DNA from: Mobula hypostoma
Taxonomy: Eukaryota
Reading direction: 5' to 3'
Length of the DNA stretch: 64,000 bases
Assembly (NCBI RefSeq): GCF_963921235.1
Contig: NC_086097.1
Span: forward strand, 74,712,001-74,776,000
Made by a program: the position numbers and the translations under genes. Shown piece by piece: positions 569-55,450 of the stretch; within the stretch, counting starts at the first letter, position 1, and every line of letters begins with the position of its first letter. The notes beneath the pieces were generated by a model that saw only the letters and a list, made by a program, of their open reading frames with translations, was not told where the DNA came from and did no database searches.

Positions 569-705
569 TCAAGGTAACAAGAGATTCTTCAGAAGCTGGG
601 AATATGGAGCAGCGCATGAAATGCTGAAGGAACTCAGCAGATCACGCACCGTCCATGAAGAGGAGTAAACAGTGGATATGCCAGGCTGAGACCCTTCATT
701 GGGAT
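569..705 (-). mobile_element. Short degenerate Penelope-like terminal fragment
   Basis: Matches the aaatgctg.aggaactcagcag...gagacccttca terminal unit repeated throughout the window. Confidence 0.65.
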
Positions 706-755
706 ATTTGCCCAGCTTTCTAAATTTTTACTAAATTAGTTTCTGGGAATGTCAT

Positions 756-1465
756 AAACACGAGAAAATCTGCATATTCTGAATATCTGAGCAACACACA
801 CAAAATGCTGGAGGAACTCAGCAGGCCAGGCTGCATCTATGGAAAAACGAAACCCTTCAGCAGGACTGGAGAAAAAAGACTGAGGAGTAGATTTAAAGGG
901 TTGGGGGGTGGGGAAGAAACGCCGGGTGATAGGTGAAACTTGAAGGGGAGGGATGAAACAAAGAACTAGGAAGTTGATTAGTGAAAGAGACGGAAGCTCA
1001 TGGAAGAAAGAAAAAATGCGGGAGGAGCACTAGACTAAGGCAATGAGTGGGCAAGGAGATAACATGAGAGAGGGACAAGGGGATGGGAAATGGTGAAGGG
1101 GGGGCATTACTGGAAGTTTGAGAAATCGATGTTCATGCCATCAGTTTGGAGGTTACCCAAACGAAATATAAGGTGTTGTTCCTCCAACCTAAGTGTGGCT
1201 TATCCCAACAGTGGAGGAGGTCATGGATGGATATATCGGAATGGGAAGTGGAATTAAAATGGGTGACCACTGGGAGACCTCGCTTGTTCAGGCAGACGGA
1301 GTGTAGATGCTCGTCGAAGCGGTCTCCCCGTTTACGTCAGGTCTAATCTACTCTTCAGCTTTTTTCTTCAATCCTGCGAAAGGTTTTTGCTCAAACCACT
1401 GACTGTTCCTTTTTCCATAGATGTTGCCTGGCCTGCTGAGTTCCTCCAGCATTTTGTGTGTGTTG
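756..1465 (-). mobile_element. Truncated Penelope-like element with inverted terminal copy
   Basis: Perfect 13-bp TSD ctgggaatgtcat (743-755, 1466-1478). Minus-strand GIY-YIG C-terminal remnant (..GDRFDEHL..). The terminal unit is repeated in inverted orientation at about 1350-1465. Confidence 0.85.
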
Positions 1466-2635
1466 CTGGGAATGTCATTCCTTGATTTATAAACAAAGAC
1501 TATACCCAGAATTCTACAGAAAGGCAAATGGATAATTCCACCAAAAGTTAACCTTTTTGTTGAACAGCCTTTATTGAGATTGGAAAGGAAAGGGGCAGAA
1601 GCCAGAATAAGAAGGTGGGGAAGTACAAGCTGGCAGAAGATAGCTGAGAGGGAAGATGGCTGGGTGGAGGGAAGGGGTGATAAAGTAAGAAGTTGAGAAG
1701 GGATAGATGGAAGAAGTAAATGGCTGAAGAAGAATTCTAATAGGAAAGGACACTGGACCATGAAAGAAACAGAAAGAGGAGGGTAACTAGAGGAGATGAT
1801 GGGCAGGTGAGAGGGTAACCAGAATGAGGAATGGAAAGAAGAGAGAGGGGGGAATACAAGCAGGTGATAGGTGAAACCAGGGGAAGGTGGGTGGGTGGGG
1901 GAGGCATCAACTTTGCCTTCAACTTCCACCCTGCTCTCAAATTTACTTCGTTCATCTCTGACACTTCTTTCCATTTCCTTGATCTACCTACCTCCATCTC
2001 TGGAGACAGACTATCTACTGACATATTTTACAAACCGACTAACTCTTGTAATTATCTTGACTATATCTCTTCCCACACTGTCAGTTGTATGCAGGCTATT
2101 CCCTTCCTTTAGTTCTTCTGTCTTTGCAGCGTCTGTTCTCAAGATGTAGTTTTCCGTTCCAGACCATCTGAGATGTCCTCATTGTTCAAGTAATAGCGTT
2201 TCCCTACCACTACCATTAATGCTGCCCTCAGCCGCATCTCCTCCATTTCCCACACATCTGCCCTTACCCCATCCTCCCACCATCATAACAAGGTTCCCCT
2301 TGTCCTTATCTACCACCCCAAGAGCCTTCATATCCAGTACATCATTCTCACTAACTGCCGCCATCTCCCAACAGGATCCTAACACTGAGCACATCTTTCC
2401 CTCCCCTGCACCCCCCCAGTTTTTACACAACTCCCTTGTCCACTCCTCATTGATCTCTGTACTGACACTTAACCTCCAGCATTTGGTGTATGTAGCTCAT
2501 CTATTGTATTCCGTGCTTCCAATGCAGTCTCCTCTTCATTAGTGAGGCACCAGGCAGTTAGGAGGGTTACTTTACTGAGCACCTTAGCTCTGCCTCTGCA
2601 AAAGGCAGTATCTCCCAGTTGCTACCCATTTCAAT

Positions 2636-3956
2636 TTGAATTGAATTGACTTTATTACTTACATTCTTCATATAATGGAGTAAAAGTCTTTACATTACGT
2701 CTCCATCAAAATGTTCAATTTAAAGTAATTTAGAGTAGTATGTACAATTGAACAGTCAATATAACATAGAAATACAATTGTATCAGAATGAATTAATCAG
2801 TCTGATGGCCTGGTGGAAGAAGCTGTCCTGGAGCCTGTTGGTCCTGGCTTTTATGCTGTGGTACTGTTTCCTGGATGGTAGCAACTGGAACAGTTTGTGG
2901 TTGGGATGACTCTGGTCTCCATTGATCTTTCGGGCCCTTTTTCCCACATCTGTCTTTGTAAATGTCCTGAATAGTGGGAAGTTCACATCTGCAGATGCAC
3001 TGGGCTGTCCGCACCACTCTCTGCAGAGCCCTGCGATTGAAGGAAGTACAGTTTCCATACCAGGCAGTGATGCAGTCAGTCAGGATGCTCTCAATTGTGC
3101 TCTTGTAGAAAGTTCTTCAGATTTCAGGGCCCATACCAAACTTCTTCAACCATCTGAGGTAAAAGAAGTGCTGTTGTGCTTTTTTCACCACACACCCAGC
3201 ATGTACAAACCACTTGAGATCCTCAGTGATGTGTATGCCGAGGAACTTAAAAGCTGTTCACCCTCTCAACCTCAGATCCATTGATGTCAATAGGAGTTGG
3301 CCTGTCTCCATTCCTCCTGTAGTCTACAACCAGCTCCTTTGTTTTTGCGACATTGAGGGAGAGGTTGTTTTCTTGACACCACTGTGTTAAGATGATGACT
3401 TCTCCTCTGTAGGCTGCCTCATATTATTTGAGATTAGGCCAAGCAGTGTAGTGTCATCATCAAATTTAATTAGCAGATTGGAGCTGTGGGTGGCGACACA
3501 GTCATGGGTATGCAGAGATTAAAGGGGGGGCTTAGGACACAGCTCTGAGGGGCACCTGTGTTGAGGGTCAGAGGGGCAGAGGTGAGGGAACTCACTCTTA
3601 CCACCTACCGGTGATGTGATAGGAAGTCCAGGATACAGCTACATAAGGCAGGGTGAAGGCCGAAGTTTCTGAGCTTCTTGTTGAGCCTGGAGGGAATTAT
3701 GGTGTTAAATGCTGCACTGTAGTCCAAGAACAGCATTTTCACACAAGCGTCTTTCTTCTCCAGATGTGTAAGGACGGTGTGTAGAGCTGTGGCTATTGCG
3801 TCATCTGTTGATTGGTTGTGTCGGTAGGCGAATTGTAAGGGGTCCAGTGTGGGTGGTAGCATGCTGCAGATTAGTGCTTGACCAGCCTCTCAAAGCATTT
3901 GCTTACTATTGAGGTGATTGTGACATGAAGCCAGTCATTCAGATATGTTACCTTGG
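2636..3956 (-). mobile_element. Rex1/Babar-type LINE, 5'-truncated
   Basis: [29 protein letters not shown] motif; C-terminal LFQLLPS...SFFHQAIRL; AATAAA plus (TTCAA)n tail at 2636-2656 on the minus strand. Confidence 0.85.
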
Positions 3957-4353
3957 TCTCCTAATTTCCATTCTGACATGTCTAACCACGGCCTCTTCTA
4001 CTGCCATAATCAGGCCAAACATGGGTTGGAAGAGCAGTACCTCGTATTCCTTTTGGATTGTTTCAGGCCTGATGGCATGAAAATTGATTTTTTCAATTTC
4101 TTTTAATTTATTGCCCTTCCCCTTTGGTCTTTTTCCATTTCCTCCTTTTTTCACCTCCCTCTGGTTCTCCACCTCCTTCTGCCCTTTATCTCATCCAACT
4201 ATTACCTCCCAGCTTCTTACTTCATCCCCCCATCCCACCGAACCACCTTCCCCCTCAGTTACATTCACCTATTCCCTGCAGTTTGTATTCCTCCTCCTTC
4301 CCCTTCCCCCACATTTTTTTTTATTCTTGCCTCTGAACACCCCCCTTCCTTTC

Positions 4354-4391
4354 CAGTCCTAATGAAGGGTCTCAGTCTGAAACATCGACTG
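4354..4391 (+). ncRNA. Degenerate minimal hammerhead ribozyme motif (PLE terminus)
   Basis: CAGTC-CTAATGA-AGGGTCTCAGTCT-GAAAC-ATC-GACTG: stem I / core / stem II / GAAA / cleavage triplet / stem I. Confidence 0.65.
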
Positions 4392-7002
4392 TTTACTCCC
4401 CTCCATAGCCTGATCTGCCAAGTTCCTCCTACATTTTGTGTGTGTTAAACAATGCAATATTCCTGATTTGTGGTCTATCTGTAGTACTATCTACAAGATG
4501 GACTGCAACAGCTAGAGCAAATTTCTTTGATTATATCACAGAAACTCACAACCTCAGTTACTAAGAGAAATGAGACCAACAAGCCCATAATCGCATCACC
4601 CTTCCAGTCGCAGATGTATCACCATTCCCTCTTTCTTGCTACTCAGGATCCCAGTCAAATCTACCTAATAACTGTTCAGTTATATCTGCAAAGGCACTAT
4701 TGTTCTCACTGCTTTCTCAAGAGCAGCGTGGAGTCGATGATATATTCTGGTTTATCAGCAATATCTGAACTAAAAAATTAAAAGGAATGGTAGAAAATTG
4801 CAATCTGCTGCATTTAGTCTGGCACTGTAAGCAGACCATGCACAAAAAAATGGCTTATTTTTTATCCCCAGAAAAGGAGTCAGTAATTAACAATTAATCT
4901 GCATTACTGGCTATCACTTTTCCGAATATATGCTGGAGCTTCTTTACAGTGGTGTATTGGGTCAGGCAGGAATTCAGGATAATGATATCTCAACTCCTTG
5001 CGTTGAAACCTGGAGACATTTGAATGAGAACAGCTAGAGACCAGATCCAGAGCACGTTTTTAATGAACTACTGAATTGAAAATGACTTTTATGTATGTTT
5101 AGTATTATTTTCGACTTTTTTCCACTGTAAAATCTGCAAGAAGGCACAACACTACATGATGACTTGCCTGGAATAGGTAGGGTGTTACCTGTGTAACTTG
5201 ACCCCAGTATTTCTATGGATTTTAGATAAATGAATTTGAGAATTGGTCTGATGCCAAGAGAAAAACAAATTATTTTTGCTGCAGTAAGAATGAAATGCAT
5301 CTAAATCTGGCTACAGATTACTATGGAAGTGAGGGGGAAAATAGAGATCAAATGTGACGGGTAATCGAAATTGAATGATAGATTGGAGAGAGGAGACCAA
5401 AAGAAGGAACTTCAAAAAATAGAGAATTTCTAAGCGTGAATGCTTGACACTGATGAACAACAAGAGAGATCATGTGCATTTTTACTACATGTTTGAGCAA
5501 TGTTATTGCATTTGTAATAAGTAGAGATATTCTTTAGTTTATGAATATTTGAATTTTTAATTTTCACAATAATGCCACTTTTACAAAACTATTTTTCACT
5601 ACAAGGAAAGGGATGCCATTCTACAGAAGAGCAAATCGATAATTTCACAAATTGGGGCTCCACATTATACCTACATGATTCATGGAAGTGTTACCAAATA
5701 AATGGTATAATTTTGCATTGACTTCCAGGAAGACATATTGGAACAGAGAACCAAATATGTGATCCAAGAGAGGTTTTAAAAAGCATTTAAAAGGGCAGTT
5801 GAGAGGTGGAGATACATGTCTCAATTTTATCATCCCTCTGTCTCTTTAATCATTTTAATGGTAAAGTTCAGATTACACTAATCTTAGATCCAGTCGAAAT
5901 ACCAGTTCTTACAGTCTAATTGTTAGGGTTTTCCTGGCATGAATAGTAATGTTGAGACCAGAGGTTTTTATAACATTTTGAATTAAATTTCAACTCTATT
6001 TCTCAGCTTGCAATCATTAGAAAAAGAAAACTGAGCAAGATGAAATCAAATTCCTAAAGTGCTGACTGTAAACAATCTTTTTGAATTAAATGACAAACAT
6101 AAAATTGTGGGCTGTTTGTTTAAAGTTTAGAAGACCGAAGTGAGATCAGAAGAAAACTTCTTCCCTCCAGTATTTCATATCTGTCCTGAATAGAACTACA
6201 GAGAAAGCAGTTATTATTCTATTAAATTAACCCTTTCCAGAAAAGGAACTGGGCAATAACATAGTTCAAAAAAAAGACTGGCAGTTAAAGAGATGTGCAT
6301 AATTTCAAATGATCAAAAATTCTACATATAGAAATAAGAGTGGCAAGGCTTTTGCACTATCAATGTAACAAGTTTAAGCTCAGAAGTTCTGTTGTGGTTA
6401 CAAATGTTACTTATGAGAATTTCATTAGAAAATTGATTGCATATTTGCCATGTTTTTTACAAAGTTTTTGATTTTGCTTCAGTATCTTCCTTATTCAAAT
6501 ACATATAGAAATGAGGGGGAAAATAGAGACAAAATGTGCAGAAGGTGAAATTTACTGCAAATCGGAGGCCTGGTTTGCCAGTACTAAAGGAGAACTGAAT
6601 GAGGAAGCCAAGCTCTTAAGAGTCTGAACCATCTGGGTCTGATTCCATTTCTGGTCCCTAAGGTCCTGATACTCCAATCCACACAGCCTTGACTGATATC
6701 TTCCCTTCTCCCTCACTTTCTGGGCATCTCAATACCACAATGTGCATTGTGTTCAACATGCTGTTCATGGTGTATTAATGTTTCTTGTCGTTTACCGTTT
6801 TATAAAGAAAGACTTATTTCTTTCCATGTGTACTGTAGCAGCATGGGTCAGCCTCTTTTATTTTTACACTGCAGAAGTGTGAATGCCCTTCTCATCTGTT
6901 TTAGTGATGATGACTAGGGAGACAAATAGCTGCTTAGGCTCCAAAGACAAAGAACTGTTGCTTTTTCAATAAATCTTAATATTCTGATAGAGTGCAGGCT
7001 AT

Positions 7003-8653: not shown

Positions 8654-8889
8654 GTGTGTTGGGCACGTGGCCAAGTGGTTAAGGCGTTCGTCTAGTGATC
8701 TGAAGGTCGCTGGTTCAAGCCTCAGCTGTGGCAGCGTGTTTGTGTCCTTGAGCAAGGCACTTAACCACACATTGCTCTAGTGTCTGTGCGAGGAGTGGCG
8801 CCCCACACAAACTTCCAACCTGCGCCTTGTAAGGCATAAAAATGCCCGACATAGGCCTCTCACGGTCTGAGTTGACGTTCCCTCCCTCC
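8654..8889 (+). mobile_element. tRNA(Thr-like)-derived SINE
   Basis: A box TGGCCAAGTGG (8668-78), B box GGTTCAAGCC (8712-21), central gtgtccttgagcaaggcacttaacc block, (CCCT)n tail, 7-bp TSD cattctt (8647-53, 8890-96). Confidence 0.85.
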
Positions 8890-9069: not shown

Positions 9070-11879
9070 GCACACAACGTAAGGAATAAAATGGATGATC
9101 TTGAAATTCAGCTACAGATTGGCAAGTATGATGTTGTGGCCATCTCTGAAATTTGGCTAAAGGATGGCTGCCATTGGGAGCTGAACGTCCAAGGATATAC
9201 AGTATATCAGAAAGATAGGTTAGTAGGCAGAGGGGGTGGTGTGGCTCAGTGTATAAGAAATAATATTAAATCATTGGAAAGAGATGACATAGGATTGGAT
9301 GGTGTAGAATCTCTATGGATTGAGTTAAGAAATGGCAAGGTTAAAAGGACCCTATTGGCAGTTGTATACAGGCCTCCAAGCAGCGATTGGGATGTGGATT
9401 ACAAATTACATCAGGAGATAGAAAAGACATGTCAGAAAGGCAATGTTATGATAATTGTTGGGGATTTTAACATGAAAGTAGATTGGGAAAACCAGGTCAG
9501 TACTGGACCTCGAGAGAGAATTTGTAGAATGGCATTTTTGAAGAGCTTGTTGTCGAGCCTACTAGGGGATCGGCTATGCTGGATTGGGTGTTGTGCAATG
9601 ATCTGGAGGTGATAAGAGAACTTAAGGTTAAGGAACAGTGATCACAATATGATCGAGTTCACATTGAAATTTGAGAGGGAAGAAATAAAATCCAATATGT
9701 CAGTATTTCAGTGGAATAAAGGAAATTACAATGGCATGAAAGGGGAACTGGCCGAAGTTGACTGGAAAGGGACATTTGCAGGAAAGACAGCAGAGCAGCA
9801 ATGGCTGGAGTTTCTGTGAAAAATGAGGGAAGTACAAGACATATATATTCCAAATAAGAAATTTTCAAAGGGAAGAAGTACACTACCATGGCTGACAATT
9901 GGAGGCAGAGCCAAAGTAAAATCAAAAGAGAGGGCATACAAGGAAGCCAGAGCTACTAGGAAGATAGAGGATTGGGGAGCTTTTAAAAACTTGCAGAAGG
10001 AAACTAAGAAGGTCATTCGGAAGGAAAAGATGAATTATGAGAGGAATCTGGCAACTAATATCAAAGAAGATACTAAAAGCTTTTTTAAGTACACAAAGGG
10101 TAAAAGAGACTTGAGGGTAAATATGGGACCAATAGAAAATGACACTGGAGATATTGTAATGAGAGATACAGAGGTGGCAGAGGAACTGAGTGTGTATTTT
10201 GCATCAGTCTTCACAGTATATTGGACATTCAAGTGTGTCAGGGAGGTTAAGTTTGTGCAGTGAAAATTACGACTGAGAAGGTGCTTAGGAAGCTAAGTGG
10301 GCTAAAGGTGGATAAATCTCCTCGACCTGATGGAATGCACCCTCAGGTTCTGAAGGAAGAAGCTGGAGAGATTGCGGAGGCATTAATGATGATCTTTCAA
10401 GAATCAATAGATTGTGGCATTGTACCGGATAACTGGAAAATTGCAAATGTTACTCCGCTATTTAAGAAGGGTGGGAGGCAGCAGAAAGGAAACTATAGAC
10501 CTATTATCCTGACATCAGTGGTTGGGAAGTTGTAGGAATCGATTGTTAGGGATGAGATTATGGAGTACCTGGAGGCACATGACAAGATCGGCCAAAGCCA
10601 GCATGGTTTCCTGAAAGGAAAATCTTACTGCAATTCTTTGAGGAAATTACAAGCAGGGTAGACAAAGGAGATGCAATAGACGTGGTGTACTTGGATTTTC
10701 AGATTTTATGACAAGGTGCCACACATGAGGCTGCTTAGCAAGATAAGAGCCCATGGAATTACAGAGAAGTTACTAGCATGGGTGGTGCATTGGCTGGTTG
10801 GCAGAAAACAGAGAGTGGGAATAAAGGGACCCTATTCTGGCTGGCTGCCAGTTACCAGTGGAGTTCCACAGGGATCGGTGTTGGGACCGCTGCTTTTTAT
10901 GACATATGTCAGTGATTTGGACTATGGGATTAATGGATTTGTGGCTAAATTTGCCGATGATACAAAGATAGGTGGAGGAGCGGGTAGTGTTCAGAAAACA
11001 GAGAGCCTGCAGAGAGACTTGGATAGTTTAGGGGAATGGGCAAAGAAGTGGCAAATGAAATACAATGTTGGAAGGTGTATGGTCATGCACTTTGGTGGAA
11101 GAAATAAACGGGGAGACTATTATTTAGATGGGGAGAGAATTCAAAATGCAGAGATGCAAAAGGACTTGGGAGTTCTTGTGCAGGATACCCTGAAGGTTGA
11201 CCTTCAGGTTGAGTCGGTGGTGAAGAAGGCGAATGCAATGTTGGCATTCATTTCTAGAGGTATTCAATATAAGAGCAGGGATGTGATGTTGAGGCTCTAT
11301 AAGGCACTTGTGAGACTACACTTGGAGTATTGTGTGCAGTTTTGGGCTCCTTATTTTACAAAGGATATACTGACATTGGAGAGGGTTCAGAGAAGATTCA
11401 CGAGAATGATTCCAGGAACGAAAGGGTTACTGTAAGAGGAATGTCTGGCAGCTCTTGAGCTGTATTCCCTGGAGTTCAGGACAATGAGGGAGGACCTCAC
11501 TGAAACATTCAGAATGTTAAACGGCCTGAATAGATTAGATATGGCAAAGTTATTTCCCATGGAAGGGGATTCTAGGACAAGAAGGCACGACTTCAGGATT
11601 GAAAGATGTCCTTTTAGAACTGAGATGCAGAGAAATTACTTTAGTCAGAGGATGGTAAATCTGTGGAATTTGTTGCCACACGCAGCTGTGGAGACCAAGT
11701 CATTGGGTGTATTTAAGGCAGAGATAGATAGGTTAGACAGGGCATCAAAGGGTATGTGGTGAAAGCAGGGGGGTAGGGATGATTGGAAGAATTGGATCAG
11801 CCCATGATTGAATGAGACAGCAGACTCAATGGGCCGAATAGCCTACTTCTGCTCCTATATCTTACGGTCTTATGTTCTT
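9070..11879 (+). mobile_element. CR1 LINE, ORF2 (APE endonuclease + RT) pseudogenised
   Basis: Fragments ISEIW, VGDFN, NYRPI.LTS, GVPQGSVLGP, KFADD in shifting frames; CR1 3' end with (tcttatg.)n tail; 9-bp TSD aatcagaat (9061-69, 11880-88). Confidence 0.92.
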
Positions 11880-21900: not shown

Positions 21901-22572
21901 CGATAGTGTGGTAGAACAAAGGGATTGGGGGATACAGATTCATAATTCATTGACCACCATAGATCAAAGTATTGAATACAGGAGATGGGCTGTTATGTTG
22001 AAGTTATATAAGGCATTGGTGAGGTCTAATGTGGAGTATTCTGTATAGTTTTGGTCACTTACCTGCAGGAAAGAAAGAAATAGAATTGGAAAAGTTATGA
22101 GAAAATTTACCAGTATGTTGCCGGGTCTGGAGGATCTGAGTTATAAGGAAAGATTGAATAGGTTAGAACTTTATTCCTTAGAACATAGAAGATTGAAGGG
22201 AGATTTGATAGAAATATACAAAATTACGAGGGGTTTAGATAGGGTAAATGCAAAGGCTTTTTCTACTGATGTTGAGTGAGACTACAACTAGAAGTCATGG
22301 GTTACAAGTGAAAGGTGAAAAGTTAATAGGGAACATGAGGGGAATCATCTTCCCTCAGAGATGGTGAGATTGTGAAACGAACTGCTGGTGCAAGTGGTGG
22401 AAACTATTTTGACTTCAACGTTTAAGAGAAATTTGGATAGGTACATGGATTGCAAGGGTATGGAGGGCTATGGTCGAGGGGCAGGTCGATAGAACTAGGC
22501 AGTTTAAATGGTTGGGAACAGACTAGATGGGCCAAAGGACCTTTTCTGTGCTGTAGTTTTCTATGACTCTAT
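18989..22572 (+). mobile_element. Older near-full-length CR1 LINE (degenerate ORF1 and ORF2)
   Basis: ORF1 start MPGRIVKCSSC..CTCDKC zinc finger, decayed esterase region, decayed APE/RT, tail ttttctatgactcta. Its 5' UTR probably continues at about 14980-15035. Confidence 0.88.
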
Positions 22573-23584
22573 ACTAGATAGATCGGTTTGTACATTAGAT
22601 ATTACATATAAGAATATACAAATAATAGCATTTCCTTACATAAGTTGAGCTTTTTAATTTGCCAAAAGATTAATGTATAACTTCCTTGTAAAGTTTGCTG
22701 CAAAGTAAGTTTTTCAGTACTTGAAAGACAATACAGAATGTTTACTATCAGGAACATGCCAAAGTAACAGGAATATATTTAAAATTTGATAACTTAAATC
22801 GTTTAACATTTGTTAAAGTTTCCACCATCTTGTAATTATCTGACCAAATTTTTTTTTGGATATGGAGGGAGCTTGATCTTAAATTATTGTGGTCCCAAAG
22901 CATCAAGCTACAGGATGATGTCTCCTAATATTTGTTGTCAGTATGTTATGTTGCAACAAATGGAACTGATTATTTTTATTGAGCAGAATATAATTTTGCT
23001 CAAAAGTAACAATCTCTGTGCCAAGACAACCGCACTGTAATTCTCCTGTTGAAACTCCAATATTCTTGTGTTAGTCCCTCAAATAAAATTTCTCTTCTCC
23101 TCTTCACTGCACCAAATATTTTTCTCTTTTTGGTTATTTAAGAGCTAGTTTGTGGTTTGGTAAAGTATTTGGCATACTACAAAGTACTGCACAAATACTG
23201 GTTATTGAATGTCAATATAATTTCATATATTTAGTTATGTGTTGAAATCTGTTTCAATTTAATGCAGCTCTTTTTGAAGGAAAATGTTTTGTTTTCAGTT
23301 CACTCTGAAGGCACATACCATACCTAAATTATTTGGATTTTGTAAGAGTGAGACCACTAATTTTAAAGTTAGCTGCCTTTAATAATTTGATGATCCATGT
23401 TACATGAAATTAAGACCTCTGTTGGTATTTGGGTGTCAGTTCAAGGCAACAGAATGTGAGAAACTTAGAGCACAGAAGTCTATTCTGCTTACCATTTCAA
23501 TGTCAGTAAATCCACTTCTTACTTTTGCTCCAGAGCTCTGTAAGTTATAATTTTCAAGTGTGCATCCAAGTATTTTGTAGCAAA

Positions 23585-28367: not shown

Positions 28368-28409
28368 TATGATGTATATTGAAGTGGGGGTAGAGAACAC
28401 AACCTAACA

Positions 28410-32189: not shown

Positions 32190-33760
32190 TGGTCTTGTCT
32201 TTCCTGTTAGGCGTTCCTGGTCTCCTGATGGTGAAGGATAATCCATTAAATAGGGAGGCCAGTGGGAAAGAAGATGAGGTACCTCATTCATAAGGGGAAA
32301 ACGTAAGATTAACAAATGGAATGGGTGCAGTCAAGGTGCTCTCAACAATACTGGAGGGTGATCCTCAGTTGAGGAACAAGGAAGTCAACTTAGAAGCACA
32401 TGTATGGAAGGTGGCATTGTTAGAGCAGACATGACAAAAGCAGACCATGGAACTGTGTCCTTAAAGGAAATGAAATGGTAAGAAATATAACTGTGGTAGC
32501 TATGGTGGACATTGATTATTCACTTGTCCTCAGAACTGAAGAAGGAAAATGTATTACAAGTGAATCATATGAAGGTGAAAGAAGGGTGGAAAATGGGAGC
32601 AAAGTTGATGAAGTTATGTAGTTTGGCATGAGAATGGAACGACATGCCATTGTGGTCATCGGTCTATTGGGAAAAGGGTGAGGTGAGAGATTTTGATAGA
32701 CTGGAATAAAGAATGCTCTGTGTGTCTTGCAAAGAGGTACACGTACCTCAGACCCGCATTGTTTCTCAGCACCACCATTTATTTGGAGCAGATGAGATCA
32801 GATAAAGAAGTTGCTCCATGTGAGATCAATTTCATAGTCATGCAACTCAGAGAACATTTACATCACAAAGATTGCTACTGTGCCTGACAGTCAAAAAGGA
32901 GCTACCCAAGCAAATTCTGCTTTACAACATAAGGTCTGTAGTCTTGCAGGTACTTTGGTGGCACAGTGGTTAAATTTCCAAACAGTAATCCAGAGACCAG
33001 TAATCTGGCCACAGTACACCCTGAGACTTGATAACAAATTGAAAGTTTTATGTTGATGATGTGGTATTTTCTGTGTGGAGGAAACCTACAGAGATCAGGT
33101 GACTATTTTGCAGAAAGCCTCTATTCAGTATGCAAGCTTGACACTGAACTTTAACTTTTCATCCCAAACCACTCTGCTCTCTGTTTTCAGCCTTCTACAC
33201 TGTTCCAGGAACAGTGTAGAAAGCACAGTACTTCTTCATCCATTTGGCCACATTGAAGCCCTTTGGACACTATATTCAATTGAAACAGCTGATTATTTCC
33301 AGCTTTTTCCTTACTTTGGATTTCCAATGACTTTTCTGTTGTGCATCTCTCAGTTCCGGGTAGCCTTGATGAAAGTTTCGGCCCAAAATGTCAACTGCTT
33401 GTTTCCCTCCATAGAAGCCGCCTGATTTGCTGAATTCTTCAAACATTTTGTGTGTGTTGCTCAAGATTTCCAGCTCCTGCAGAATCTCTTGTGTCTCCAG
33501 ACAACTCTTGTTTTGTCTTCCTTTAATTCCCCTCCTTCATGAAATAATTGGTTGGAACCAAAAATAATGTGCTCCTGGACAATCATAGGTTCCTCTCTAT
33601 CACACATATTTCCCTTGTTCTCCCCATCCCTTCTTTTCTCTGCTACATAAAAAATAAGCTTTTTAACTTTTCCAATTCTAAAAGGATCATTGACCTGAAA
33701 TATTGTTTTCCTCCACACAGATGCGGCCTGATCCATTGAGTTGTCTTAGTACTTTCAGAG
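32190..33760. mobile_element. Cluster of old Penelope-like fragments
   Basis: Decayed minus-strand body at about 32190-32790; plus-strand 3' part at about 33040-33495 ending in the terminal unit; a second variant terminal unit at about 33670-33755. Confidence 0.55.
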
Positions 33761-40080: not shown

Positions 40081-40179
40081 TGACATTTTGCTGTATTTTA
40101 ATGCATTACTTCTGCAGAAGAATATCATTTCTGGTATTTGCTAGTTTGAGCTCTGTCTTGGAAAAGATTACCAGGCAAT

Positions 40180-43111: not shown

Positions 43112-43325
43112 TCAGCGGGTCAGGCAGTATTTGTGGAAGGAGAAGCAGTTAATGCTTCAGGTCAAGGGCACTACCTTGGAAATGATTAGCTATTGTGATA
43201 AAGTACCCTGGTCCTGAAACATTAACTGTTTCTCTTTCCACAAATGCTCCTCGTTCTGCTGAACATTTTCACCATTTGCTGCCTTTATTTCAGATTTTTA
43301 ATATCTGCAGTTTTCTGATTTCATT
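43112..43325. mobile_element. Fold-back mini-element made of two inverted PLE terminal units, inside an old CR1 remnant
   Basis: 43112-43168 is the inverted repeat of 43207-43262. Confidence 0.7.
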
Positions 43326-45161: not shown

Positions 45162-45641
45162 AAAAAGTGCTGGCTGTCTATTCTATCTGTGCCTCTCATA
45201 ATCTTATACACCAATGTCAAGTTACCTCTCCTCCTCCATCACTCCAAAGATAAAAGCCCCAGCTCACTCGATCTTTTCTCATAAGACATGCTCTCTAATC
45301 CAGGCACCATTCTGGTAAACCTCCTCTGCACCCTCTCTAAAGCTTTCACATCCTTCCTTTGACAGGGCAACCAGAAATGAACACAGTACTCTCTTAGTGT
45401 GTTCGAAACATTGTTTTGTAGGGCTGCAACATTACCTTACGGCTCTTGAACTCAATCCCCTGACTAACAAAGGACAGCACAATGTGGGCTGCCTTAACCA
45501 CCCTATCAACTTCCATGGCACCTTTGAGGGACCTATGGAATTGGATCTCCATGATCCCTCTTTCCTCTAAACTGCTAACAATCCTGCCATTAATCTTGTA
45601 CTCCATCTGCCACTTTTCTACCCAACTGTGCATCCTGTGTA

Positions 45642-45774
45642 AAACAAGAGAAAATCTGCAGTTGCTGGAAATTTGAGCAGCACACACAAAATACTGGAGG
45701 AACTCAGCAGGCCAGGCAGCATCTATAGAAAAAAGTACAGTCAATGTTTCAGGCCGAAACCCTTCAAAAGGACT
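45642..45774 (-). mobile_element. 133-bp PLE terminal-unit insertion
   Basis: TSD tgcatcctgtgta / tgcatcctatcta (45629-41, 45775-87; 11/13). Confidence 0.8.
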
Positions 45775-46071
45775 TGCATCCTATCTATATCCCATTGTAA
45801 CCTACGACAAACTATTACACATTGTCCACAACACCTCCAACCTTCATGTCATCTACAAACTTAACCCACGCTATCATTTCCTTACCGAGGACATTTATAA
45901 AAATCACAAAAAGCAGGGGTCCCAGAGCAGATCCCTGCAGAACACAGCTACTCACCGAATTCCGGACAGAATATGCTTCATCTACTGACACCCTCCGCCT
46001 TCTGTGGAGAAGTGAATTTTGAATCCATGCTGCCAAGTTTCCATGGATCCTGTGCCTAGTTCATCCACCCC

Positions 46072-46480
46072 ACCCCAGTGTTGGATGATGATTCCAAGTA
46101 ATGGTGTCTCATCCCAGTGTTGCATAATGATTCTGCGTAATGGCATCCCATGCCAGTGTTGCATAATGATTCCAAATAATGGGATCCCATCCCAGTGCTG
46201 GATGATGATTCTGTGTAATGGGATCCTATCCCAGTGTTGCATAATGATTCCGAGCAATGGGATCCCATCCCAGTGTTGGATGATGATTCTACGTAATGGA
46301 ATCCTATCCCAGTGTTGCATAATGATTCCGAGTAATGGGATCCCATCCCAGTGTTGGATGATGATTCTGTGTAATGGGATCCCATCCCAGTGTTGCATAA
46401 TGATTCCAAGTAATGGGATCCCATCCCAGTGTTGCATAATGATTCCGAGTAATGGAATCTCATAACGATTCTCTGTAATG
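46072..46480. repeat. 39-bp minisatellite, 10 full units plus a partial one
   Basis: Unit atcccagtgttgcataatgattccgagtaatgggatccc starting at 46072, 46111, 46150 ... 46423. Confidence 0.97.
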
Positions 46481-49004
46481 CTCCTCCTTTGGTACACTTA
46501 ATTCAGCATCAAGTGCACATGGTTCCTCTGTTCCTGCACAAATGGCTACGTACAGCACATTTTTATCCACCTGCCAAAGTGCATCCACTGCACTTCTGTG
46601 TTTTAAATTCTGTCCTTCAGTTCACTTCCTATTCCTGTTCTATCAGTCTTATGTCCCCATGATGGAGACACAATATATTGCAGGTGGAAAGAAACTCAGC
46701 AGGCCAACTAGTATCTGTGGTTCAACTCAGATAAAGGGATTCAATTCAGAAAGTTAACTGTCCATTTCCCTTGGCAGAGTTCCTCCAGCAGCCTGTTTTT
46801 CATGATCTTCTAGTACTATTATTTACTATCACTCATCTGCTATTTTAACATTTCCCTGCACACCCATAACCAACAAATTAAATACATTAAAGTGTTCCTA
46901 GTGCTATCCCTAGGGAACATCACAGTGCACCTAAAGTGTGAAAACTGCTTATCACAGCTCTGCTTCCTGCCTGTCCTAGTCAAATACTTATTCAAGCTGC
47001 TTCTGACCCTTTTATTCAGTTTCGCTGAACTTAATTACTCATTAGATCATCATATTAAATCATTGTGACCCAAAAACTCAGAGTGAAAAGTAATTTTAAA
47101 GAACACAGATAGTAATACCACAGAGCAGGAATAAGTAAGCACGTGAAATATAGAGGACAAAAATGACCAAAATATTGTAAATTGAATATTAAGCACCAAC
47201 AGGTGCCGTCTGTTACGTGGCTGAGTACAAGCAATTCCAGTTATGATCATTTATTTTCAATTTTCTATTGTGCTTGGGTATCATAATTGTGAAAGGATGC
47301 CTAAAATCCAGCAATAAATATAGAATATGAGTTCTAACTTTATTTTGGAAATACATCCAGTGCATATCTTCAACAGATGTCTTGTGTTTTTACACTCTTA
47401 ACATCAGATGAACCTACTTTCTTTGGGACCATTCTTTCCCTTATTTTGATTCTGTGGTTCATATGCATATCTAAAGCACTAAAATCTATTAACTTAAATT
47501 GAGGATAAGGCATTCTGTATGAAGTTTGGCCAAATTTTACTTGATCCATAGCTACAGTATGCAGGTTTTAACAAATAACTTAAGGAAGAGAATTAAGGGA
47601 TTGTATTTAAACAGTTTTGACCTTAAATAGTATCAGTATAAATGTTGGTTACATTTATTGAGGAATAACTCGGGAGGGTACCAACTGCCTTGTGATAGTA
47701 TGTGAGATTGTGACTGATCTATGATATCCCCATTTACATTTTGTCCTGTATTCCTTACTACAGAAGTTCTTCAAAGTTTAATTTAAAATTAACAATGGCT
47801 GATTATCTACTGTACATCTCCCAATTCATTGCATGTAGAAACGTTTCTGTGCAACTTTCTTGAAAAGCCCGGTTCAAATTTTGAAAATCTTGTCCTCCAG
47901 TGAAGGCAACTTAATCATCAGAAATATTTTTCCCTCCCTATCTGATCAGTGTTTCTTAATATCTTGAAAAATGTTATTAAATTAATCCCCAGTTTTCTTA
48001 ATTCCCAGAGTTTAATCCATAGTTTGTGAAATCACTCCTTTCAATTTAGCCCTTGCAGGCAAGGCATCTTTTTTGTAAGTCTACATTACACTCAAGTCCC
48101 GTATATCCTTCCTGAGATGTGTTCAGAACTGAACACAATACTCTGGCTGTGGTCTAACCAGGGCGTCGTTCAACTGTAATTTAAAGTGTACCCTCTGGAA
48201 ATTAATTAATAGTCCAGATATGAGACTACAGATACTAAAATATTTTATGAGGCAGTTTCAGATATTAGAATTTAAATTTAAATTCTAGTCTTCTGCATAT
48301 AGAGATCAGAATTACGTTCACTTCTTTAATTATCTTCCATTCCTGTCCAAGATATTTTAAGGAGCAAAGATTTTCTCAAGGAAGTAGGAGCAGGACAAGT
48401 CCCTGAATGTTTGCTGTGATCATAGCTGATCTATGCTGGCCTCAACTCCTGCTTAGTTCTCCAGAATCCTAAATTTCTTGATCTTTCCAGTAGTAAATAT
48501 AAAATATGAATTTTGATCTTATTTTTAAAGAAAAGTAGTATATCTGTCCAATAAATCTGTTTCAGCATTCCTATTGCATGAGTCAAGTTTGCAGTTTCCA
48601 TTAGTAACAATCTCCACTTCAGTTTTTCTCCAAAGAGAGTACTTTTTTCTGTCTTTTAAGTACACAAAGTGGAAGGCATTACATGTTACTGAAACTTACT
48701 TACCAAGTTCTGGCCCTTAATCCTTAGCAATTTCATAGTTCCATGTATAATGCTTATGAAAGTATTCAAAAAAATTAATAGCTATTACCATGTGAAACAA
48801 AGATTAATGATTTGAGAACAGTGGCAATAGGCAAAATAATTCACTGTAATATTGGAAATCTGAAAGCTTGCATATGTTATTAATTAACTAGCCTCAAGAT
48901 CTCACCATTATCATTATTCACTCTGGATTGATTTTGTTTTTTTTTGTGTGAGGGATATCAAGGTTATAAAGAGGAGTACTTTTTTTTTAAATCAGAAAGC
49001 AAAG

Positions 49005-50945
49005 TCATTATGCCAGAAATTCAAGAGTGTCAGGGGCAGAAGTGAGTCTATTTGCTATTACTGAGGAGATGATGCTTGGGAAGCTGAAAGGTCTGCAGGC
49101 AGTTAAGCCACCTGGACTACTCCCCAAGGTTCTGAAAGAGATGGCTGAAGAGATTGTGGAGGCCTTAGTACTGATCTGTCAAGGATCACCAGATTCTGAC
49201 ATGGTTCTGGAGGACTGGAAAATTACAAATGTCACTCCACCCTCTAAGAAAGGAGAAAGACATTAGAAAGGAACTTATAGGCCGGTTAGCCTGACTTCAG
49301 TGGTTGGGAAGATGTTAAGGTTGGACTTTCAGAGTGCATGGTAAAATAGACCAAAGTCAGCATGGTTTCCTTAAGGGGAAATTTTGCATGTCAAATCTAT
49401 TGGCATTCTTTGAGGAAATAACAGTAATAACAGTCAGGATAGACAAAAGAGAATCAGTGGATGTTTGTTATTTGGGTTTTCAGAAGTCCTTTGTCAGGGT
49501 ACCACACATAAAACTGCCTAACAAAATAAGAATCCATGGTATTACAAGAAAGATGCTAGCATAGATAGAAGATTGGCTGACTGGTAGGAGGCAAAGTGTG
49601 GGAATAAAGGGAAGCTTTTTTGGTTGTCTTCCAGTGACTAGTGGTGGTCCACAGGGGTCAATACTGGGACCACTTTTTTATATTACATGCCAACGATTTG
49701 AACGATGGAATTGATGGTTTTGTGGCCAGGTTTGTGAATGATATGAAGATAGGTCAAGGGGCAGGTAATGTTGAGGAAGCCAAGCGTCTGCAGAAGAACT
49801 TAGACAGGTTGGGAGAATAAGCAAAGAAGTGACAGATGGAATATAGTGTGGAGAAGTGAATGGTCATATATTTTGGTAGAAGGAGTACAAGTGTAGACTA
49901 TTTTCTAAATGGGAAGAAAATTCAAAAATCAGAGGTGCAAAGGAACTTGGGAGTCCTTGTACAGGAATTATTCCAGGGTTAACATATGCGGAGTGTTTGA
50001 TGGTTCTGGGCCTGTATTCATTTAAGTTTAGAAGAATGATTCGAGATCTCATTATTACTCAGAGCATTGAGTATAGGAGTTGGGATGTAATGTTGAAATT
50101 GTATAGGGCATTGGTGAGGCCAAATTTGGAGTATTGTGTATAGTTCTGGTCACCGAATTATAGGAAAGATGTCAATAAAATTGAGAGAGTACAGAGGAGG
50201 TTTACTAAAATGTTGCTTGGGTTTCATCTGCTAAGTTACAGAGAAAGGTTGAACAAGTTAGGTCTTTATTCTTTGGAGCGTAGAAGGTTGAGGGGGGAAA
50301 TTGATAGAATTGACGTGGATAGGCTTTTTCCATTGAGAGTGGGGAAGATTCAAACAAGAGGACATGAGTTGAGAGTTAAAGGACAAAAGTTTAGGGGTAA
50401 CATGAGGGGGAACTTCTTTACTCAGAGAGTGGTAGCTGTGTGGCTTCCAGCAGAAATGGTTGAGGCAGGTTCGTTGTTGTTGTTTAAAGTTAAATTGGAT
50501 AGATATATGGACAGGAAAGGAATGGAGGGTTATGGGCTGAGTGCATGTCGGTGGAACTAGGGGAGAGTAAGAGTTCAGCATGGACTAGAAGGGCCGAATG
50601 GCCTGTTTCGGTGCTGCAATTGTTATATGGTTCTATCTCATTGAAGCCCTATCAAATATTGGAAGGTCTATATTGAGTGGATTTGGAGAGGATATTTCCT
50701 ATTGTGGGCGAGTCTACGACCACAGGGCACGGCCTCAGAATAGAAGGACATCCATTTAAAACAGATATATGGAGGCCAAGTTATTGAATATATTTAAAGC
50801 GGAGGTTGATATGTTCTTGATTAGTCAAAGCATTAAAGGTTACAGGTAGAAGGCATGAGAATAGGGTTGAAAGGGGTAATAAATGAGCAATGGTGGAATG
50901 GCAAAGCCAATTGGCCTAATTCTGCTCCTATATCATATGGTCTAA
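49005..50945 (+). mobile_element. CR1 3' part containing a second nested CR1 3' fragment (50054-50634)
   Basis: Decayed RT motifs; the nested copy is bounded by an 8-bp TSD atctcatt (50046-53, 50635-42); each has its own 3' tail. Confidence 0.88.
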
Positions 50946-51173
50946 TATTAGTATTTTAACTTTATCTTCTTGAAAGTGAAAGTTTTTATCTTGAAATGAA
51001 TTCATGTTGACTCACCTCTGTTTCTATTGGGCACCTACAATTTAAAATTAGTCTCAATTTGTCACAAATTGTTTATGCTTACTTGAAGAATTAAGAATGA
51101 AGATTGGTTTGGGTGTCACACACAAAAAGCTGTAGGAACTCAGCAGGCCAGGCAGCATCTGTGGTAAAAAGTA

Positions 51174-51211
51174 CAGTCGACACTTTTGGCTGAGACCCTT
51201 CAGCAGGACTG
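51174..51211 (-). ncRNA. Degenerate minimal hammerhead ribozyme motif
   Basis: Reverse complement CAGTC-CTGCTGA-AGGGTCTCAGCCA-AAAGT-GTC-GACTG. Confidence 0.55.
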
Positions 51212-52077
51212 GAGGGGGAAAAAAAGTAAATTTAAAAGGTGGGGCAAGGTGAGTGAGAAACACAAGGTGAGGGGTGAAACCGTGAGGCAGGAGGATGAAG
51301 TGAAGAGCTGGGAAGTTGGTTGGTAAAAGAGATACAGGGCTGGAGAAGGGGGGATTCTGATTGAAGGCAACAAAAGGTCATGAAAGAAAGAAAGGGAGGG
51401 GAGAGCACCAGAGGGAGGCAATGGGCAGGCAAGGAGACAAGGTGAGAGAGGGATAAGGAGATGGGGAATGGTGAAGGGGAGCCATTACCGTAAGTTCTAC
51501 ATCAGGTCTCATGGATATTGTGACTTCCTGTATATCGGTGAAACTCAATGTAGATTGGGAGACCACTTCGTCAAGCACCTGTGCCTCATCCGCCAGAAAA
51601 AGCGAGATCTCCCAGTGGCCACCCATTTTAATTCCACTTCCCATTCCCATTCCAATATGTCAATCCTTAGCCTTCACTACTGTTGCAATGGGGCCACACT
51701 CAGGTTGGAGGAACAACACCTTATATTTTGTCTGGATAGCCTCCAACCTGATGGCATGAATATCGATTTCCCGAACTTCCAATAATGCCCCCCTCCCCTC
51801 TCCTTCACCATTTACCATCCCCTTTTCCCTCTCTCACCTTATCTCCTCACCTGCCGCCTCCCTCTGGTGCTCTTCTCCGCCCTGCCCCCCACCCCTTTCT
51901 TTCTTCCATGGCCTTATGTCCTCTCCTATCAGACTTCCCCTTCAGCCCTGTATCTCTTTCACCAATCAATTTCCCAGCTCTTTACTTCATCCCTCCCCCT
52001 CCTGGTTTCACCTATCATCTTGTGTTTCTCACTCCCCTCCACCCACTTTTAAATCTACTCCTCATCTTTCTTCTCTC

Positions 52078-52115
52078 CAGTCCTGCCAAAGGGTCTCGGC
52101 CCAAAACGTCAACTG
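52078..52115 (+). ncRNA. Degenerate minimal hammerhead ribozyme motif
   Basis: CAGTC-CTGCCAA-AGGGTCTCGGCCC-AAAAC-GTC-AACTG; apart from the C in the core, the differences from consensus are CpG-type transitions. Confidence 0.6.
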
Positions 52116-53722
52116 TACTTTTTCCATAGATGCTGCCTGGCCTGCTGAGTTTCTCCAGCATTCCAGGTGTGTTGCTTGGATTTCCAGCATCTGCAAATTT
52201 TCTCTTGTTTGTGATTGGATTGAGTGTGTTGGTTAGGTTTTGTTACCAAAATAACACTTAATAGGTCCATATTAATTAAAGATAAATCTCCCAGTTTTCT
52301 GTGGAGCAAGCAATATTGCACAATTATTGGCCAGTTTGAATCACGCTGTCTTACAAAATGTCAATTCTCCTTCATGCTCCTGAAAGTTTCATGAATATAC
52401 TGTGCCTACAATCAACTCTAATAATGTTGTGATACCTAGGAGCTGTCCACAAACAAAAATATGAAGCACAATAAATAGAAGATCCACCATTTGATAGCTT
52501 AATTATCATGAGATTTATCTACTTGTATTGCCACTCGATCTGCCCTGCAGAGAAAATGAAGAGTTAATTCTGTAGCCTTGTTCTTGCCGGTATTAAATTG
52601 TCAGAACTTTTCAAAATGAGAACAAGTTCTTCTTCTTTCCCTCTTGTCTTTCAATGTCCGTTCATACTTTGATTTTATTCCGTGCCATCTTCTTCTCTTA
52701 GACCATCCTTAAATTCCTGTTGGATTGGACTGTGGTTCTTTCCCAGCCAATAATTGCAGTCACTAGTGTGCCAAAATCATCATGCTCTTACAGCTATTTG
52801 TATTACAGAACATCTTCGAGCTGAGAGACTCCAGCAAAAATCTGTGCTGTTGTGTTGCCAGAAAGCAGTCAACACAGAAATTGCTTTGAGTATTTATTTC
52901 GCAGTGTTAATATTCCTCAGAAAAAAAGGATATAGTTAAGTCCAAGTGATGATAGCATGCTAAGAAACATTTGCATTACAAATAAATTTGATTGATTTTT
53001 AAGTCTGCATTCTTAGCATGGACTTGTTTTTATGATTATCTGCCATTCAGGTACTTTTTCTTCATGCATTTTGTCTTCTGGGAAACCTTGGGTTTCATTC
53101 TTTCTCGTTGGGCTTGGGTGAAAGAGGAATGACATAAAAGGACACACCATCCCAGATTGAAATGATATTACAGAGTGATATGGACAGAGGCTTGAAACAT
53201 TTACCCAACTGCCCTTACAGAGGAAGAATTGGTTCATACAAGCTTCTTCAATGCATAACTGTGTAGCATCACCTCGCTTTAAATATCTCACTGAACAAGC
53301 CTTTTGATTTGGAGCTGTCAATTTTGATACATCGTGTTTTATTCTTATGTTTTCATGTAAAGTGTTATGTGATTATCCCAATTTAAAAGATCAAATTAAG
53401 AGCTGTTGACTTTTTCAGGACTGGGGCAAAATGAATATACTTTTGTATCATTCCTTGTCTAGGTGTCATTCACATGCAGAATATTCAGCATTGTTGAAAC
53501 CCGTGGAAAGTGTAGTTTATTATCCTTTCTATTGCAGATTAGAAATTGTATGTATTTTGTTTCTTAAGTGAATGTTTGGATGTAGAAATCACAACATGAG
53601 ACATGCTTGTCAGAAAAAATAAGTTTTTAACATTATTTGATGTGACAAAAATCTCTCTCCTTAAAACCAGAAAATGTTACATCAAATCAGTAATAATTAA
53701 AGAACAAGAACATTATAAACTG

Positions 53723-55450
53723 GTTCTCATCTTATTTTTACCATAGATGTCCAGTCCCTATACACCTCCATTTCCAATCAGGAAGGCCTCAAAACTCTCA
53801 GTTTCTTTCTGGGCACCAGACCCAACCAGTTCTACTCCACCACCACTCTCCTCCGTCTAGTGAAACTTATCCTCAATCTTAATAATTTCTCCTTTGGCTC
53901 CTCCCACTTCCTTCAAACAAAAGATGTAGCCATGGACACTCGCATGGATCCCAGCTACGCCTGGCTTTTTGTCAGTTACATGGAACAGTCTGTGTTCCAG
54001 GCCTACACTGTCCCCCACTTTTCCTATGCTACATCAATGACTGCGTTGGTGCTGCTCCGTGCACCCATGCAGAACTCATTAATTTCATCCACTTTGTCTC
54101 TAACTTCCACCCTGCCCTCAAATTAACCTGGTCCATTTCCAACATCTTCCCCTTTCTCGATCTCACTGTCTCTATCTCTGGAGACAGCTTATCTGTTGAT
54201 GTGTATTATAAACCCCATGGACTTTCACAGCTACCTGGACTATAAAAACATCATCACATTTCTCAATTCTTCTGTCTGCACCGCATCAGCTCTTGGGATG
54301 AGGCTTTGCATTCCAGAACGAAAGAGATGTTCTTCTTCAAAAAAAGGCTTCCCTTCCTGCACTATCAACACTGCCCTCAACTGCATCTCTTCCATTTCAC
54401 ACATGTCTGCTCTCACCCCATCCTCCCGCCACCCTACCAGGGAAAGGGTACCTCTTGTCCTCACCAGCCTCCGCATCCAGCATATATTTCTAAGCAACAT
54501 CCACCATCTCCAACTGGATCCCATCACCAAGCATGTCTCCCCCCGCCCCGCTTTCTGCTTTCTGCAGGGATCGCTCCCTACGTGATGCCCTTGTCCATTT
54601 GTCCCTCCCCACTGATCTCCATCCTGGCACTTAGCCTTGCAGGTGGAACATGTGCTTACCTGCTCCTACACCTTCTCCTTCACTACCACTCAGGGCCCAA
54701 AACTTCCCTTCCAATTGAGGCAACACTTCACCTGTGGGTCTGTTGGGGCCATATACTGTGTCCTGGTGTGGCCTCCCGTATATTGGTGAGACTCAACGTA
54801 GGTTGAGAGACCACTTCGCCAAGCACCAGCACTCCATCTGCCAGAAAAAGCAGGATCTCCCAGTGGCCACCCATTTTAATTTCACTTCCCATTCCCATTC
54901 TGAATCGTGCATCAATGGCCTCCCCTACTGTCACGATGAGGCCATACTCAAGTTAGAGGAACAACACCTTATATTCCATCTGGGTAGCCTCCAACCTGAT
55001 GGCATGAACATCGATTTCTCAAACTTCTGGTTATAACCCCAGCCACACCCCCCTCACCAGTCCCCATCCCCTTTTCCCTCTCTCACCTTATCTCCTTGCC
55101 TGCCCATCGCCTCCTTCTGCTGCTCCTCCCTGTTTTTCTTTCTTCCATGGCTATCTGTCCTCTCCTATTAGATTCCACCTTTTCCTGCCCTGCATCTCTT
55201 GCAACAAGCAACTTCCCAGCTCTTTACTTCACCCCTCCCCCTCCCGGTTTCACGTATCACCTTGAGTTTCCTCTCCTCCCCTCACCTTTTAACTCTACTC
55301 TTTTTTTTTTCTCTCTAGTCCTACTGAAGCGTTTCGGCCCGAAACATCGACTGTACTTTTTTCCGCAGGTGCTGCCTGGCCTGCTGAGTTCCTCCAACAT
55401 TTTGCATGTGTTGCTCGGATTTCCTGCATGTGCAGATTTTCTCTTGTTTG
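53723..55450 (+). mobile_element. Penelope-like element, 5'-truncated (RT + GIY-YIG remnants)
   Basis: DVQSLYTSI, NNFSFGSSHFLQ.K.VAM.TRM.PSYA.LF, CGLPYIGETQRRL; TSD acattataaactg / acattataagctg (53710-22, 55451-63). Confidence 0.92.
55316..55353 (+). ncRNA. Degenerate minimal hammerhead ribozyme motif
   Basis: TAGTC-CTACTGA-AGCGTTTCGGCCC-GAAAC-ATC-GACTG. Confidence 0.6.

Follow-up and report, generated by a model that had tools for sequence, protein, structure and literature searches.

Decayed minimal hammerhead ribozymes in the termini of a Neptune-type Penelope-like retroelement of Mobula hypostoma, and a subfamily with C at core position 6

The window analysed here comprises 64,000 nucleotides of DNA from the ray Mobula hypostoma (NCBI RefSeq assembly GCF_963921235.1, contig NC_086097.1, positions 74,712,001 to 74,776,000 of the forward strand) and contains ten copies of a 38-nt motif, which are neutral, decaying DNA copies of a minimal type I hammerhead ribozyme in the pseudo-long terminal repeat (pLTR) of a Neptune-type Penelope-like retroelement (PLE). 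The commonest subfamily of these copies descends from a motif in which position 6 of the catalytic core was C rather than A (C6 rather than A6). With a probability of roughly 0.7, the copies are decayed pLTR hammerheads of such an element, whose C6 lineage spread with a cleavage activity that was most likely weakened and not needed.

All ten sites named in a preliminary description of the window carry the motif at or within a few bases of the positions given there, with the start at 33361 rather than 33357 and the copy ending at 705 now occupying 670-707 (Table 1; copies are called by the 5' position first given for them). Scored against a profile of the other nine copies, each copy reaches 17.2-47.9 bits (the 870 copy being scored on its 21 surviving columns), compared with a best score of 13.7-16.8 bits in 20 Markov-resampled windows, none of which equalled any copy. 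Fainter relics are detected by nhmmer at ~1546-1599(-), 33668(+), 43112-43165(-), 46669-46721(-) and 46730(+).

A CpG-aware consensus of the copies consists of a 5-bp stem I, a seven-base core followed by one extra A, a 4-bp stem II with a 4-nt loop, and then GAAA, CG and UC, that is, GAAA-NN-UH with a palindromic 15.2/16.2. This supports the type I minimal-hammerhead layout with a loopless stem III in a Penelope-like terminus that had been proposed, with the refinement that 4 bp, closed by a U-G pair on a 4-nt loop, give the better description of stem II. In its A6 form, the consensus satisfies a relaxed minimal-hammerhead descriptor, with pair probabilities of 0.88-1.0 in stems I and II, and on inspection it also agrees with the descriptor and metazoan alignment of Cervera & De la Peña. 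The ACGT palindrome proposed for stem III is intact in one of nine copies and is otherwise deduced from the variants at its centre (CA in five copies, TG in two, CG and TA in one each). Contigs from three external runs belonging to three studies (107,094, 6,033 and 9,946 pieces aligned) restore consensus bases by majority at three places in the 55316 copy, namely C at 55316 (79/89/69% in the three runs), G5 at 55323 (92/92/68%) and G at 55330 (97/98/94%). A CpG at core positions 7-8, seen in one copy and one loose-end consensus, was considered and is not claimed.

No copy is perfect, as the preliminary description had noted: the relaxed descriptor finds no match on either strand of the window, with A as well as with A or C allowed at position 6, and at least one core position is broken in every copy. 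Likewise, Rfam gives no hammerhead match in the window up to an E-value of 10. CpG decay, which had been held responsible for much of the damage, is sizeable and accounts for under half of it, since, with columns 9 and 18 excluded, CpG-type transitions make up 27 of the 66 departures from the CpG-aware consensus; they affect 27 of 74 CpG cells, whereas the 39 remaining changes are spread over 267 non-CpG cells. The core has fared no better than its surroundings, with 6 of 50 non-CpG core cells changed as against 8% across the pLTR, and hence there is no sign of use by the host. It is likely that none of the ten copies is able to cleave today, so that "family of ribozymes" overstates what are relics of a ribozyme-bearing element. 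The oldest relics, 1562-1599(-), 43191-43228(+) and 46722-46759(+), have A at position 8, one of them also showing T at position 3, and in some faint copies (33668, 43165) A stands opposite U in the last pair of stem II. These letters hint at an older U3-A8 subfamily among the most decayed relics, which are too degraded for the sequence to make this certain.

Position 6 is C in copies 870, 51211, 52078 and 55316, T in 45775, and A in 705, 4354, 33357 and 43190; the 1369 copy has lost one base at position 6 or 7, so that its assignment to C6 is ambiguous. Thus, a strict CUGANGA core describes the four copies of the ten that have A and fails for a subfamily of six. The relaxed CUGNNGA core used previously does cover the copies, but masks a C at the normally invariant A6 in the commonest subfamily, and the reading of "A/C" at this position as decay does not hold, because C or T is confined to one subfamily in which A never occurs. 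Indeed, when the downstream flank alone is compared, the six C/T copies form the tightest of 210 possible six-copy subsets, with a mean distance of 0.15 among themselves versus 0.35 to the A6 copies. The background of A-to-C change in these pLTRs is 4 in 189 cells, at which rate four such changes in five informative copies would arise by chance about once in a million (our own arithmetic). Since this background is too low, and the flanks group the same copies, C6 was already present in source RNA: on these sequence grounds at least three insertions derive from RNA that carried it, and a fourth probably does. While the C6 ancestry of the subfamily follows from the copies themselves, we infer that transposition took place in the C6 state. 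In one run (X15), the loose-end consensus of nine contigs also reads C6 (agreement 0.64). Outside position 6, the core of the reconstructed C6 motif is preserved, as are both stems, and the subfamily appears from its sequence to be a modest, probably unreported variant of a published kind of hammerhead. In the literature searched, neither a C6 hammerhead from a PLE nor a PLE ribozyme from a ray was encountered, and the A6C change appeared in phage work and reviews only; further core variants or elasmobranch examples may be contained in Lünse et al.

Several observations weigh against this reading. No branch gains support in a maximum-likelihood tree built on the 64 columns of the flank. Neither 55324 (position 6) nor 55346 (the G of ACGT) is among the 40 of 122 contig variants listed; by our own calculation, each of these 40 reaches ~58% in one or more of the runs, which points to A not being the predominant letter in the contigs aligned at 55324, but clipping at this place is expected to remove A6 contigs preferentially and so to skew the table in favour of C. 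For the other subfamily, loose-end consensuses give ACAT (X15, X16) and AAAT (X1) in place of ACGT. None of nine stem pairs shows a two-sided change and the stem cells, at 76% paired, do no better than shuffles, albeit in a small sample of nine decayed and closely related copies, and consequently the structure is supported by its layout and not by covariation. Finally, C6 copies could have been mobilised in trans by the protein of an A6 element, in which case the argument that the element as a whole can do without cleavage would lose force.

The host element can be recognised from the open reading frame (ORF) that precedes the motif. In copies 870, 4354, 52078 and 55316, the motif lies ~290-300 nt past the end of a GIY-YIG ORF, the position of the pLTR in a PLE. 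Upstream of the motif, the ORF remnants share 64-78% identity with their five best matches, and the last 89 ORF codons are 68-78% identical to predicted Mobula and Hypanus proteins (the four best of nine matches). The remnants align to the predicted proteins P0001 and P0003 over a reverse transcriptase (RT) followed by the C-terminal GIY-YIG endonuclease (EN). RT motifs are present in the homologues, and Pfam detects GIY-YIG in four of five of them, in each case slightly below the gathering score; the five window fragments alone give no Pfam match. A CX2-5CxxC linker precedes GIY-YIG in homologues P0001-P0004 and is degenerate in the window. The order RT, CxxC linker, GIY-YIG is the layout of Neptune and Nematis elements, and an optional tail of ~35 nt has been described for PLEs (PMC8557442). 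Judged by sequence, the element is therefore probably a Neptune-type, EN-containing PLE, with a linker that is also common to Nematis.

Additional features surround the ORF end and the motif. A tract rich in pyrimidines (76-88% C/T) terminates with an AG that lies within the 5' strand of stem I, clearly so in four of six copies compared, and the ORF end is followed by a GTAATG-type site (window 55030-55318(+) and 51779-52080(+), with the same placement in other copies). The stretch from the ORF end to stem I thus resembles an intron, and splicing it out would leave a shorter stem I; for the Penelope hammerheads of D. virilis, an intron boundary at helix I has been described. Predicted protein P0003 passes from the last codons of the element into other sequence at the GTAATG-type site, and a joint between ORF end and stem I is absent from the 15 joints listed (there being 399 more). 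The depth of runs X15 and X16 mirrors the DNA depth profile and their RNA nature is only guessed, so they provide no evidence of expression. Just past the motif, 55364-55417(+) has about tenfold or more the contig depth of the motif in all three runs, which marks it as the part most common to the subfamilies; it is possibly an RT-binding site or an ORF start. In the predicted ray proteins P0003 and P0007, the RT/EN end of the element is joined to gene models of the host, which bear the names DIPK1C isoform X2 and neuromedin-U receptor 1; these fusions may be annotation artefacts or exonisation.

The ten motifs correspond to at most eight insertions rather than the "about ten termini" originally counted, because 870/1369 and 51211/52078 are the arms of two fold-back insertions (A and C in Table 1). 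Solo stubs and fold-back pairs are bounded by target duplications, of which only matches of 10-18 nt are relied on, the search having been made without a chance control. Insertions A and C are 5' truncated, with an inverted pLTR arm and a tail of 30-40 nt on one side, and the target duplications together with this one-sided tail match PLE anatomy. Neither a pLTR-ORF-pLTR arrangement nor a tandem of the same element occurs in the window. Two candidates for such pairs were rejected, namely 52078/55316, which lie 3.2 kb apart with separate target duplications, and 1369/4354, which belong to separate insertions. The paired motifs lie on opposite strands, so that one transcript would contain a sense and an antisense copy, not a dimer. 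Similarly, the head-to-tail tandem of a non-LTR retrozyme is absent, as none of nine tandem-repeat rows in the window overlaps a motif. The short copies 45775(-), 707(-), 33361(+) and 43179(-)/43191(+) have their start at the motif's 5' edge rather than at the site of the predicted cut, as fixed by a target duplication for 45775 and judged by eye for the others.

Table 1. Hammerhead relics and retroelement insertions of the window, together with a hammerhead from a metagenome locus
Feature	Position	Strand	Details
Hammerhead relic, A6 group	670..707	-	Core broken at U4, G5, A13 and A14; heads a short pLTR-end fragment, ~564-707
Fold-back insertion A	743..1478		Identical 13-nt target duplication, 743-755 / 1466-1478; long arm 752-1328(-) with EN end, pLTR and tail; short arm 1331-1467(+) without tail
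Hammerhead relic, C6 subfamily	850..870	-	3' half deleted
Hammerhead relic, C6 subfamily	1369..1405	+	One base lost at position 6 or 7
Older element	1500..4450	+	Inverted pLTR arm ~1500-1890(-) with a faint motif; RT-linker-EN remnant 1906-2635; unrelated insert ~2640-3955 (boundaries by eye), then EN end, pLTR and motif
Hammerhead relic, A6 group	4354..4391	+	Both stems fully paired; G5 broken; stem III is ACAT
Hammerhead relic, A6 group	33361..33397	+	Heads a solo pLTR-end fragment to ~33496
Oldest-looking relic, A6	43191..43228	+	Weakest score, 17.2 bits; head-to-head with faint arm 43112-43165(-)
Solo insertion	~45639-45774	-	10-nt target duplication, 45629-45638 / 45775-45784; 5' end at second base of stem I
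Hammerhead relic, C6 subfamily, T at position 6	45738..45775	-	In the solo insertion
Fold-back insertion C	51102..52227		15-nt target duplication, 13/15 identical; arm 51117-51500(-) without tail; arm 51519-52211(+) with EN end, pLTR and tail
Hammerhead relic, C6 subfamily	51174..51211	-	
Hammerhead relic, C6 subfamily	52078..52115	+	Sole copy keeping ACGT; predicted cut 52110/52111
5'-truncated Neptune-type element D	53709..55463	+	14-nt target duplication, 12/14 identical; broken RT, CxxC linker region and GIY-YIG ORF (~53731-55033), pLTR, motif, tail
Hammerhead relic, C6 subfamily	55316..55353	+	C6 at 55324; predicted cut 55348/55349
Optional ~35-nt tail	55417..55450	+	On one arm only in insertions A and C
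Canonical minimal hammerhead, A6, 7-bp stem II	Metagenome locus L013, 1806	-	Complete; distant RT relative on the other strand

Minimal hammerheads in metazoan PLE pLTRs have been published previously (Cervera & De la Peña 2014, PMC4209133), and that work describes the same combination of type I topology, pyrimidine-rich 5' flank, extra base after A9, G10.1-C11.1 pair and GAAA-CG-UC without loop III, with most copies standing alone as products of truncated elements and others paired on opposite strands at distances of a few hundred bases. The sizes observed here also fall within the limits of this class, which allow 3-7 bp in each of stems I and II, a stem II loop of 3-10 and an optional base after A9. 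In its table S1 and alignment S3, as far as these were available, no cartilaginous fish is listed and every core has A6, the variant form being U3-A8; the descriptor given there requires CUGANGA and would therefore miss the C6 subfamily. The closest vertebrate counterpart is the Poseidon element PAc of Anolis carolinensis, which is likewise a PLE with a pLTR hammerhead, an optional tail and many truncated copies (PMC11167929). PAc belongs to the Poseidon clade, whereas the element here has the CxxC linker of Neptune and Nematis, and the PAc ribozyme has been assayed, whereas the present motifs are known from their sequence. It is reported to cleave only with protein, and ribozyme-dead mutants still insert in vitro (PMC11167929).

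A natural hammerhead with the same C at core position 6 is found in phage Bcep176 (PMC3088659, PMC7151607). It is a single assayed intergenic phage ribozyme, unlike a retroelement subfamily and lacking a loopless stem III, and cleaves at 0.004 per min in 1 mM Mg2+ and at 0.31 per min in 1 mM Mn2+; A6C engineered into another hammerhead gives a Mn/Mg difference of >10,000-fold at 0.3 mM, and free Mn2+ in cells is far below Mg2+ (PMC7151607). By analogy, the activity of an A6C ribozyme is predicted to be weak in Mg2+ here as well. Small PLE-associated hammerheads that cleave as dimers (Lünse, Weinberg & Breaker, RNA Biol 14:1499, as summarised in PMC6765202) share the short palindromic stem III and the dimer model. 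Non-LTR retrozymes carry type I hammerheads derived from PLE pLTRs and are reported from one chondrichthyan genome; they are head-to-tail tandem repeats (bioRxiv 10.64898/2026.07.22.740005), whereas no motif here lies in a tandem array. Minimal PLE hammerheads are slow, and for that of Schistosoma dimers and trimers cleave weakly while monomers do not.

The following sequence of events would account for these observations. Reverse transcription, by the mechanism given in the literature, would start near the 3' end of the element and usually stop early, as a result of which the pLTR end and its motif are copied far more often than the ORF, leaving solo stubs and fold-back pairs. By analogy with its published relatives, the ancestral A6 motif was probably a slow ribozyme cutting after GUC, which may have needed a second copy, the element protein, or both to build helix III. 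One source lineage would then have gained C at core position 6 and gone on to give at least four insertions in the window, its source element having lost most cleavage in Mg2+ and kept transposing, or having been copied in trans. On the strength of the phage and anole ribozymes, it is most likely that C6 cleavage was weakened or lost in Mg2+ and that transposition proceeded without a need for it.

A different interpretation of C6 is that it represents an active, retuned ribozyme, which cuts after GUC with the element protein or Mn2+ and in which C was kept because it prevents mispairing between the core and stem III. The rate of the Bcep176 hammerhead in Mn2+ and the protein dependence of the anole ribozyme would fit such a scenario, as does folding, where the A6 consensus buries G5 against C17 (P 0.95-0.98) and C6 opens the core (P 0.01-0.07). 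However, the same G5 mispairing is possible in every published minimal hammerhead with CGUC, and thus does not constitute a defect in need of repair, and the scarcity of free Mn2+ in cells speaks against the metal requirement. The otherwise intact core and stems of the C6 motif would be expected of a ribozyme in use, but equally so if C6 arose shortly before the burst of its lineage, and the solo insertion with a duplication-fixed 5' end starts 31 nt upstream of the cut site. We therefore regard the retuned ribozyme as unlikely. Slightly less probable still is that the subfamily amplified with an A6C hammerhead that is still in catalytic use, nearly silent in Mg2+ alone and switched on by element protein or Mn2+; if true, an animal retroelement would possess a ribozyme gated by metal or protein, and the A6 and C6 subfamilies would provide a natural side-by-side test, within one genome, of the role of PLE hammerheads.

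We consider it quite improbable that the copies form a single family of canonical, obligately dimeric hammerheads in which A/C reflects ordinary decay. The four A6 copies and the published consensus do conform to the canonical form, and the behaviour of the Schistosoma dimers and trimers favours the model, but C6 follows a subfamily defined by its flanks and is far too frequent for decay. Moreover, the missing same-element tandem offers no source of dimers in the window, and a 4-bp ACGU duplex (-1.7 kcal/mol) would face a competing GUCGAC self-duplex of -10.3 kcal/mol. The canonical dimer model is thus contradicted for the C6 subfamily, and is likely to describe the A6 subfamilies. Least plausible of all, and very improbable in our view, is that the motif is not derived from a hammerhead, but is a conserved pLTR signal such as a splice acceptor, promoter or protein-binding hairpin with a chance likeness. 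Consistent with a mere signal are the missing Rfam match and covariation, the six individual copies that fold no better than shuffles (z -0.8 to +0.2), and the pyrimidine tract whose AG overlaps the 5' strand of stem I. Yet the published PLE consensus is matched in placement (a PLE pLTR, just past the ORF), in the letters of the core, in the base added after A9, in G10.1-C11.1, in the palindrome CG and in both stems, and the intron end at helix I is itself known from the D. virilis hammerheads. Decayed pLTR hammerheads with a C6 lineage whose cleavage in Mg2+ was most likely weakened remain the reading we prefer.

Exact-pattern scans of metagenome, viral and prokaryote collections returned nothing, and P0001 detects no loci in viral collections. 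In metagenomes, P0001 detects 29 loci of distant relatives, one of which carries, antisense to the ORF match, a canonical A6 minimal hammerhead (Table 1); none of the 29 has a non-A6 form or matches the pLTR profile of the window. Read-through of the motif into predicted proteins was seen in none of 21 candidates, and a larger protein library gave five weak matches, of which the three inspected are unrelated repetitive proteins.

Elsewhere in the window, a tandem array of ten 39-nt units (46069-46463, 83% matches) contains no hammerhead motif, and three GC-rich units of 62-64 nt are located at 61002-61200. Long interspersed repeats at 10241-11637, 21253-24209, 25189-27283, 49005-50298 and 62609-63998 are 60-78% alike, occur in both orientations and are probably fragments of long interspersed nuclear elements. 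A tRNA-like stretch at 8664-8730(+) scores below the Rfam threshold (21.9 of 29 bits), is not called by ARAGORN, and is possibly the head of a short interspersed nuclear element. An inverted repeat (24452-24617 / 24966-25131) has 166-nt arms that are 81% complementary and 348 nt apart.

Minimal hammerheads in such termini are themselves ordinary and of an already known kind. Hammerheads are nearly universal in the canonical PLE clades and absent from the very successful Naiads (PMC8557442), which leaves their role in these elements in question. The C6 subfamily, having spread with a core change known to impair cleavage in Mg2+, provides genomic evidence on this question, and surveys built on CUGANGA undercount PLE hammerheads. 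The copy numbers and 5' ends of A6 and C6 copies within one genome make the role of the PLE hammerhead testable.

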